From: Gammaproteobacteria bacterium
GTDB taxonomy: Bacteria; Pseudomonadota; Gammaproteobacteria; DRLM01
Reading direction: 5' to 3'
Length of the DNA stretch: 64,000 nucleotides
Assembly: GCA_037381915.1 (NCBI GenBank)
Contig: JARRQJ010000021.1
Coordinates: 14,634-78,633, forward strand
Below are positions 47,934 through 51,412 of the stretch, in pieces; within the stretch, counting starts at the first letter, position 1, and each line of letters starts with the position of its first letter. A program made the translations under genes and the position numbers. Below the pieces are notes generated by a model. That model was not told the DNA's origin. It searched no databases and worked only from the letters and a program-made list of their open reading frames with translations.

Positions 47934-50372
47934 TCAGTCTCTCAAAGTAGCCCCGAAGGTGTCCCTCAATCTCGCCAATACCCTTTCCATAACGATATCG
48001 ACGTCTCCGTCCGTAAGAGTGCGCGAAGAATCCTGTAACGTCAAGCCCAACGCCAGACTTTTTTTCCCCGAATCAATGCCTTTGCCCTTGTAGACATCAA
48101 ACAACTGTAGTTCCTCTAGCCACTCCCCCGCCGCTTCCCGAATACTGCCTTGCAGCGCGGCACTGCTGACCGTATCGTCGACGATCACGGCCAGGTCACG
48201 ACGAATGGCCGGATACTTTGATGCCTCCCGGAAGCTGGGCAGTTGCGCCTGAGCTATTTCCTCTAGCGCCACCTCAAATAATACAGTTAATTTGCTGATA
48301 TTTAAAGAATTAGCAATACGCGGATGTAGCGTGCCCAGAATACCCGCCTCCCGCCCGTGGGGAGAAGTGAATTGTGCGGTTTGTCCCGGATGCAGCGCCG
48401 GGTGCGATGCCGCGTTAAACAGATAGTCCTGGGCAAACCCGGTCATGGCCAGTAACGTCTCCACATCCTTTTTGACATCGAAGAAATCCGTTTCCCGCTC
48501 GGTTTCCGCCCATTGCTCCGGCATCAGACTGCCCGCCACGATGCCGGCAATCACGGTCTCCTCCCGCACCTGCCCCTCCCTCCGCCGGAAGCGCGTCCCG
48601 ATCTCGAACAGGCGTATCCGATCTTGTCTTCGATTTAGATTATAGAGCAAGGCCTGCACCAAGCCAGGCCAAAGACTGGTCCTCATTACCGCCATGTCGG
48701 CGCTGATCGGGTTGGCCAAGCTCACGGGCGCATGTTCGGGATCAAGCAGTTCCTGCAGGCGAGGATCGACGAAACTATAAGTGATCGCCTCTTGATAGCC
48801 GCGCTCGATCAGACGTCGCCGCAGAACCGCTGTCCCGACCTTGCTTTCGGACCGGCGTTGCATCGTAGCGGGAACGGGTGGGCTGTGGCTCGGCAGACGG
48901 CTGTAACCGTAGATGCGGGCGAGTTCCTCGATCAGATCGGCCTCGATGCTGATATCAAAACGAAACGAAGGCGGTGTCACTTGCCAGCAGTCATTTTCTT
49001 CCATCACGTCCATCCCTAAACGCTTCAGGATACTCATTACCTGCGCGCGCGGAATGTCGGCACCCAATAAACGTCCCATTCGGGCAATACGCAACGGAAC
49101 CTGGGCGGGTTGCGGGAGATGGGACCGGCTGCTCTGCTCCATGATGGGACCGGGCCTTCCGCCGGCAATGTCCAGCAGCAAGCGCGTGGCGCGTTCCATG
49201 GCGCGGCGCGCCGACTCAGGATCCACGCCTCGTTCGAAACGATGGGACGAGTCGGTATGCAGACCATAACGCCGCGCACGGCCGGCCATGGCCGCCGGTG
49301 CGAAATAGGCGCTTTCCAGCAGAATATGTCGGGTCGCGTTGGCCATGGCCGCCGGTGCGAAATAGGCGCTTTCCAGCAGAATATGTCGGGTCGCGTTGCC
49401 GACGGCGCTCGCGGCGCCGCCCATGATGCCGGCCATGGCCACCGCGGCAGCGTGATCGGCGATCACCAGGGTATCCTTGTCCAAATCGACTTCCTGATCA
49501 TCCAACAAGCGCAGGCGTTCATTCGCCCGCGCCAGCCGCACATGAATCCCGCCCTTGAGGCGTTCCAGGTCGAACGCGTGCATGGGCTGACCCAATTCCA
49601 GCAGGACGTAATTGGTGACGTCTACCACGGCGTTGATGCTGCGCAAACCGCTGCGGCGCAATCGCTCCTGCATCCACATGGGTGTCGGCGCATCGACCGC
49701 TACGTCCCGGACGATACGCGCTGTATAGCGGGGACAGGCTTCGGGGGCGCTGACCTCCAGCGGGACTTGTTCGTCTATCTCAGCCGCGACGGGCGCGACC
49801 TCCGCGTCGCGCAGCGGAACGCCGTTGATAACGCTCACTTCGCGGGCAATCCCGGCCACACTCAGGCAATCACCGCGGTTGGGGGTCAAGCCCAATTCGA
49901 GGCTGACATCATTGAGCAGCAGATAATCGCGCACATCCTGTCCCGGCTCTGCGTCGTTGGAAAGGATCATCAGGCCTTCCGAGCTGTCCGCCAGGCCCAG
50001 TTCCTTAGCCGAACACAACATTCCTTCCGATGTCTCGCCGCGCAGCTGGGATTTTTCTATATTGATCCCGCCCGGGAGTTTCGCGCCGACCACGGCGACC
50101 GGCACCCGTACGCCCTTCGCCACGTTGGCGGCGCCGCAGACGATGCTCAAAGCTTCCGCCGCACCGACGTTGACCTGGCAGACGCGCAATCGATCAGCGC
50201 CGGGATGGGGTTCGACACGCAGCACCTCACCCACGACCACGTTGCTGAAGTACGGCGCCACCGGCTCCACGGCATCCACTTCCAGGCCGGCCATGGTGAG
50301 TTGCTCCGCCAGGTCGGTCGTGGAGATGTCGGGGTTCACCCATTCCCGCAACCATTGTTCGCTGAATTTCAT
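47934..50372 (-). CDS. pheT: Phenylalanine-tRNA ligase beta subunit (with internal 19-aa duplication)
   Basis: MKFSEQWLREWV start at 50372; TPNRGDCLS, GQPMHAFD, RFERGVDP, FDVY.G. Confidence 0.97.
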   Translation of the reverse strand: MKFSEQWLREWVNPDISTTDLAEQLTMAGLEVDAVEPVAPYFSNVVVGEVLRVEPHPGADRLRVCQVNVGAAEALSIVCGAANVAKGVRVPVAVVGAKLPGGINIEKSQLRGETSEGMLCSAKELGLADSSEGLMILSNDAEPGQDVRDYLLLNDVSLELGLTPNRGDCLSVAGIAREVSVINGVPLRDAEVAPVAAEIDEQVPLEVSAPEACPRYTARIVRDVAVDAPTPMWMQERLRRSGLRSINAVVDVTNYVLLELGQPMHAFDLERLKGGIHVRLARANERLRLLDDQEVDLDKDTLVIADHAAAVAMAGIMGGAASAVGNATRHILLESAYFAPAAMANATRHILLESAYFAPAAMAGRARRYGLHTDSSHRFERGVDPESARRAMERATRLLLDIAGGRPGPIMEQSSRSHLPQPAQVPLRIARMGRLLGADIPRAQVMSILKRLGMDVMEENDCWQVTPPSFRFDISIEADLIEELARIYGYSRLPSHSPPVPATMQRRSESKVGTAVLRRRLIERGYQEAITYSFVDPRLQELLDPEHAPVSLANPISADMAVMRTSLWPGLVQALLYNLNRRQDRIRLFEIGTRFRRREGQVREETVIAGIVAGSLMPEQWAETERETDFFDVKKDVETLLAMTGFAQDYLFNAASHPALHPGQTAQFTSPHGREAGILGTLHPRIANSLNISKLTVLFEVALEEIAQAQLPSFREASKYPAIRRDLAVIVDDTVSSAALQGSIREAAGEWLEELQLFDVYKGKGIDSGKKSLALGLTLQDSSRTLTDGDVDIVMERVLARLRDTFGATLRD
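49284..49397. repeat. Exact 57-bp tandem duplication within pheT
   Basis: GGCCATGGCC...GGTCGCGTT at 49284-49340 and 49341-49397; encodes NATRHILLESAYFAPAAMA twice. Confidence 0.97.
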
Positions 50373-50386
50373 CGAAGCTCCACAAA

Positions 50387-51412
<1,026 letters not shown>

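Follow-up and report, generated by a model that had tools for sequence, protein, structure and literature searches.

An exact 57-base repeat in pheT

We analysed a 64-kb window, that is, the whole stretch of DNA under study (G000:C21:14634-78633), from a 3.46-Mb draft genome in 129 contigs with 94% completeness and 2% contamination (G000). The window carries the operon for the two subunits of phenylalanyl-tRNA synthetase (PheRS), in which pheS lies upstream of pheT, and an exact repeat falls within pheT. The features discussed below are as follows:

47934..50372 (including stop), minus strand: pheT, phenylalanyl-tRNA synthetase beta subunit, 812 aa as assembled
49341-49397, minus strand: 57-base unit, first copy in the protein, PheT residues 326-344, containing Glu334
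49284-49340, minus strand: 57-base unit, second copy in the protein, PheT residues 345-363, containing Glu353
50387..51403, minus strand: pheS, alpha subunit, upstream of pheT in the same operon

Exact comparison within the 64-kb window revealed two identical units of 57 bases, at 49284-49340 and 49341-49397. They are directly adjacent, with no N between them, and their base-for-base identity extends by 1 base more, the G at 49398. Tandem Repeats Finder reported the same element at 49284-49398, with a period of 57, 2.0 copies, 100% matches, 0 indels and a score of 230, and in the tandem repeat scan it was the only repeat in the window scoring at least 60. The reading frame remains free of stops across both units, and NATRHILLESAYFAPAAMA is present twice in the protein, as residues 326-344 and 345-363. 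These results confirm the initial annotation in its description of the locus as assembled, namely an exact, in-frame 57-bp tandem duplication at 49284..49397 and a PheT of 812 aa containing 19 duplicated residues. Same-genus relatives indicate an expected length of 793 aa, corresponding to a surplus of 19 residues in the assembled protein. Labelling either copy as the extra one is arbitrary; 49284-49340 is the stretch that the bridging contigs of the four metagenome runs described below leave out.

Two simple origins were rejected at this point. Chance cannot account for an exact 57-base repeat in 64 kb, and a phase-variable or microsatellite repeat does not match an element with two copies only, a complex unit and border homology of just 1 base.

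Position of the repeat relative to the editing site

PheT showed matches to the Pfam domains tRNA_bind, B3_4, B5, tRNA_synthFbeta and FDX-ACB, all above cut-offs, and full-length matches to the PheT structures of E. coli (3pco_B, E 7e-248) and P. aeruginosa (4p71_A, E 5e-274). The repeat falls inside the B3_4 domain, which is matched as two stretches because of it, in agreement with the earlier placement of the site in the B3/B4 editing domain. In ungapped alignments to 3pco_B, the copies align with residues 324/327-342, Glu334 and Glu353, one in each copy, both fall on E. coli E334, and Thr373 of the GLHTD motif falls on T354. Passages of PMC3553970 and PMC12268091 give E334 and T354 as editing residues of PheRS. 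Glu353 in the second copy and Thr373 are 20 residues apart, as are E334 and T354 in E. coli, so the alignments also bear out the spacing proposed in the initial annotation. The protein is therefore the same as its E. coli and P. aeruginosa counterparts in full-length match and in all five domains, and as the E. coli enzyme in the spacing of the editing-site Glu and Thr, and differs from 3pco_B and 4p71_A in just 19 extra residues, which are absent from every other PheT examined.

We then considered the predicted structure of the 812-aa form. An AlphaFold2 model of PheT residues 200-420 kept the domain fold (mean pLDDT 88.2, pTM 0.84), with copy 2 modelled as the native strand (model positions 151-157, residues 350-356) and copy 1 as a low-confidence loop (model positions 129-145, residues 328-344, pLDDT <50). 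The underlying alignment comprised 19 relatives, all carrying one copy, so just one query copy had aligned partners (copy 2 in the relatives' alignment) and the model is biased. At most, the model suggests that duplicated PheT could fold while the insert is looped out. Looping out of the insertion, here seen as the copy 1 loop, is the outcome that the initial annotation had named as speaking against an effect on editing.

PheT of relatives

PheT matches were found in the genomes of 27 relatives, 19 of which were compared as loci (49-77% identity), and a single copy was present at the site in all 19. Complementarily, we evaluated PheT relatives from metagenomes, comprising 80 loci with a best identity of 74%. 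The segment was matched in 74 of them, two of which do not extend across the site, and all 72 sequences covering it were single-copy, with 19 gap positions opposite the query, arranged as one gap in 70 cases and as a split gap in two. The sequences of the solved PheT structures also contain one copy. Alignment with relatives hence speaks against the duplication claimed for PheT, as one copy was found in all 91 other PheT checked.

The single-copy junction in metagenome runs

Parts of the stretch are contained in 18 public metagenome runs from marsh, salt-marsh and mangrove samples, all of them available as Logan contigs, with at most a fraction of 0.94 of the sampled words found in any one run. 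We compared the contigs of four marsh runs from three studies (X1, X2, X6 and X7), which may or may not include the source sample of the genome, with positions 48700-50000 of the window. In all four runs, 49283 was joined directly to 49341, so that exactly 57 bases were skipped, with 58 letters fitting either side of the joint. Apart from this, the bridging contigs showed 0-1 differences from the window over the 1244 remaining bases:

X1: 2157 bases, depth 31.2; 0 differences left of the joint and 1 right of it (49445 C>G); shorter side of the joint 255 letters
X2: 2422 bases, depth 8.9; 0 differences left of the joint and 1 right of it (49445 C>G); shorter side 255 letters
X6: 157 bases, depth 4.9; 0 differences; shorter side 53 letters
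X7: 296 bases, depth 10.4; 0 differences in the listed piece 49341-49574; shorter side 62 letters

Among the contig pieces listed for these four runs, none covered 49284-49340. Binned depths across 49272-49359 equalled the contribution of the bridging contig alone in X2, X6 and X7, and lay slightly above it in X1 (11.4 versus ~8.5 and 15.1 versus ~13.5), where the surplus comes from a further record, which could be foreign or could carry the junction. In a de Bruijn graph with k=31, the duplicated sequence yielded four unitigs, broken at the repeat, and the one-copy sequence yielded a single unitig; the bridging contigs therefore mean that words spanning the duplication junction are absent or rare in these runs. 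Single-copy pheT occurs in the sampled runs and is their dominant form. As Logan contigs drop rare variants, these runs do not establish the absence of the duplicated form. A search of metagenome_contigs returned 0 exact matches to the 57-base unit, and hence no independent assembly of the strain from that source.

The runs also revealed some strain variation: at 49445, X1 and X2 carry G instead of C, and an additional contig of lower depth, present in each of X1 and X7, shows 11 differences across 49086-49243/49251.

Exact duplications elsewhere in the assembly

To place the pheT repeat in its genomic context, we scanned the whole of G000 for exact tandem repeats with periods of 12-1000. Fifteen had a period of at least 30, comprising two arrays of an 18-base unit and 13 two-copy duplications of 88, 82, 75, 72, 57, 45, 45, 44, 43, 37, 33, 33 and 31 bases. 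No two-copy exact duplication longer than 88 bases was found up to a period of 1000. Besides the one in pheT, 12 more such duplications of 31-88 bases are thus spread across the genome (contig coordinates, with locus coordinates in brackets):

C30:75100 (L022:1601-1690): 45 bases, 16S rRNA, universally conserved region near Rfam model position 960
C30:75664 (L022:2165-2328): 82 bases, last 82 bases of 16S rRNA repeated
C36:21915 (L023:2416-2591): 88 bases, PIN/PhoH gene split into two frames
C5:23588 (L025:2089-2176): 44 bases, UvrD-like helicase gene split into two frames
C61:20506 (L024:2507-2580): 37 bases, M48 peptidase gene frameshifted
C30:5388 (L026:1889-2032): 72 bases, in frame within COQ7
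C55:14654: 33 bases, in frame in a Ser/Thr kinase ORF
C69:362: 31 bases, end of an asparagine synthase gene
C12:1594: 43 bases, outside every called ORF of at least 50 aa
C8:853: 75 bases, ORF without a Pfam family
C53:4813: 45 bases, ORF without a Pfam family
C4:135987: 33 bases, ORF without a Pfam family

Both 16S duplications sit in the only 16S rRNA found in G000, and at the 45-base duplication the gene has 46 bases where the Rfam model has 1. None of the duplications of 88, 44 and 37 bases is a multiple of 3 in length. With one copy removed, the open frame grew from 457 to 515 aa in the PIN/PhoH gene, from 264 to 330 aa in the UvrD-like gene and from 545 to 633 aa in the M48 peptidase gene. 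The assembly further contains runs of N at C4:42422 (7 bases), C11:29354 (4), C51:5752 (24), C82:2644 (51), C106:3741 (5) and C129:1388 (7). Such runs, of 4-51 bases in six contigs, indicate that it was scaffolded with estimated gaps.

Two better-assembled genomes of the same genus served as a control for exact repeats, G002 (2 contigs, 800 kb searched) and G001 (8 contigs, 400 kb searched). No exact repeat of at least 30 bases turned up in the searched part of G002. Those in the searched part of G001 were 7-base microsatellites, long repeats in giant repeat proteins and a single 44-base repeat located at the edge of a gene. Across the 1.2 Mb of both genomes, no exact repeat of at least 30 bases lay in a housekeeping gene. 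The controls thus held one comparable repeat in 1.2 Mb, where ~4.5 would be expected at the rate of G000, as opposed to 13 in 3.46 Mb; this difference in density is suggestive, weak when taken alone and not significant. It is the location of the G000 duplications, which fall in rRNA and housekeeping genes whatever harm they would do there, and not their number, that carries the argument.

Origin of the pheT repeat

In light of these findings, we regard the 57-base repeat in pheT as a false tandem duplication introduced by the draft assembly rather than a feature of the organism, with a probability of roughly 0.85. A scaffold join is the likely route. Two contigs would have ended inside the conserved part of pheT, their ends overlapping by 57-58 bases, less than the assembler would have needed for a merge; scaffolding or gap closing would then have abutted both contigs, so that the overlap was written twice. 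The duplications in G000, all shorter than 89 bases, fit overlaps below the word or read length of an assembler. Assembly graphs branch at conserved stretches shared between organisms, so that contigs tend to end there. The 16S sites are universally conserved, and contigs of other organisms, 90-95% matching, occur on short stretches near the pheT duplication, so the sites fit contig ends. Most likely, the real gene is an unremarkable pheT that has one copy only and encodes 793 aa, and its editing site is intact.

The conversion of overlapping contig ends into tandem duplications by scaffolding is described in passages of Rhie et al. (10.1101/2020.05.22.110833). The 'homotype' duplications reported there share with the present case one locus written twice in tandem at overlapping contig ends, identical copies and a size bounded by read or word length. 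Those cases come from vertebrate long-read assemblies and usually have a gap between the copies, whereas the copies in G000 abut without N, the overlaps measure 31-88 bases and the draft is of a bacterial, metagenome type. Our literature search for tandem-duplication assembly artefacts returned eukaryote genome papers only and no microbial precedent.

Alternatively, the repeat could be a real and very recent in-frame duplication in a strain or subpopulation, placing a 19-residue loop beside the editing pocket, with one strand copy in its native place, the other looped out and editing unchanged or mildly altered. We consider this unlikely. The repeat is in the assembly and keeps the frame, as a tolerated real event would (57 bases are 19 codons), although so would one in three random lengths; the metagenome contigs are compatible with a minor allele; and the AlphaFold2 model, in keeping the domain fold, suggests that such a protein could fold, a support weakened by the bias from 19 aligned one-copy relatives. 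Against it stand the single-copy form in 4/4 runs, with identical or near-identical flanks, and the lack of the duplication in all relatives. It would also have to be reconciled with equally exact repeats that would cripple the 16S rRNA and frameshift three genes, which is implausible biology. In its more far-reaching form, this reading holds that a very young allele truly exists in a gammaproteobacterial population of the marsh, and that the extra strand with the Tyr-recognising Glu, looped out beside the editing pocket, could change Tyr-tRNA(Phe) proofreading; this form appears improbable. The duplication junction was not seen as a population allele, either among the contig pieces listed for the four runs or through the 57-base unit in metagenome_contigs. 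If the duplication were real and editing impaired, the nearest biological precedent would be the editing-defective PheRS of Mycoplasma mobile, in which, according to the relevant passages of PMC3553970, editing residues and motifs were substituted over evolutionary time. Unlike that enzyme, the PheT studied here keeps every editing residue, one of them twice, in an exact repeat without divergence.

An artefact could also have arisen before assembly, from a chimeric molecule formed during amplification or library preparation or from a read-merging or polishing error, rather than from a scaffold join. Such events would equally yield exact duplications that are absent from other samples and scattered regardless of function. 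However, reads from a chimera would be rare and would not often prevail in the consensus at as many as 13 sites, scaffolding is evident from the runs of N, and all 13 duplications are below 89 bases, as expected for short overlaps. We therefore judge this origin highly improbable and favour the false duplication by scaffold joining. Taken together, the 4/4 single-copy runs, the 91 other PheT and the dozen similar duplications strongly favour an artefact over a real event, two readings to which the initial annotation had given equal weight, and they lend no support to its suggestion of impaired editing with Tyr mistranslation.

Implications for the use of the genome

Most likely, the organism has a normal PheRS, and the repeat carries little biological weight. 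Its value is that of a quality flag, as G000 is a species-representative genome with about a dozen probable false exact duplications. A 16S sequence taken from it would be wrong at both duplication sites, and an annotation would list the PIN/PhoH, UvrD-like and M48 peptidase genes as split or as pseudogenes. Before any insertion, 'pseudogene' or odd rRNA feature of this genome is interpreted, it should be checked against reads.

Two further irregularities were observed. The 23S rRNA (L022:2851-5342) is cut by the contig end and lacks Rfam LSU model positions of about 272-305 as well as a stretch around 600-711 of that model, where 83 model positions are represented by 1 base. At the 3' end of pheS (50387-50444, minus strand), homology to relatives continues up to LRYG and stops near 50444, followed by 18 unrelated residues; the conserved 19-residue PheS ending, VNDLRLFFENDLRFLxQF, is found in 5/5 relatives compared. 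The ~52 replacing bases are GC-rich and were not found elsewhere in the genome by a whole-genome search, and this odd pheS end may be another assembly fault.
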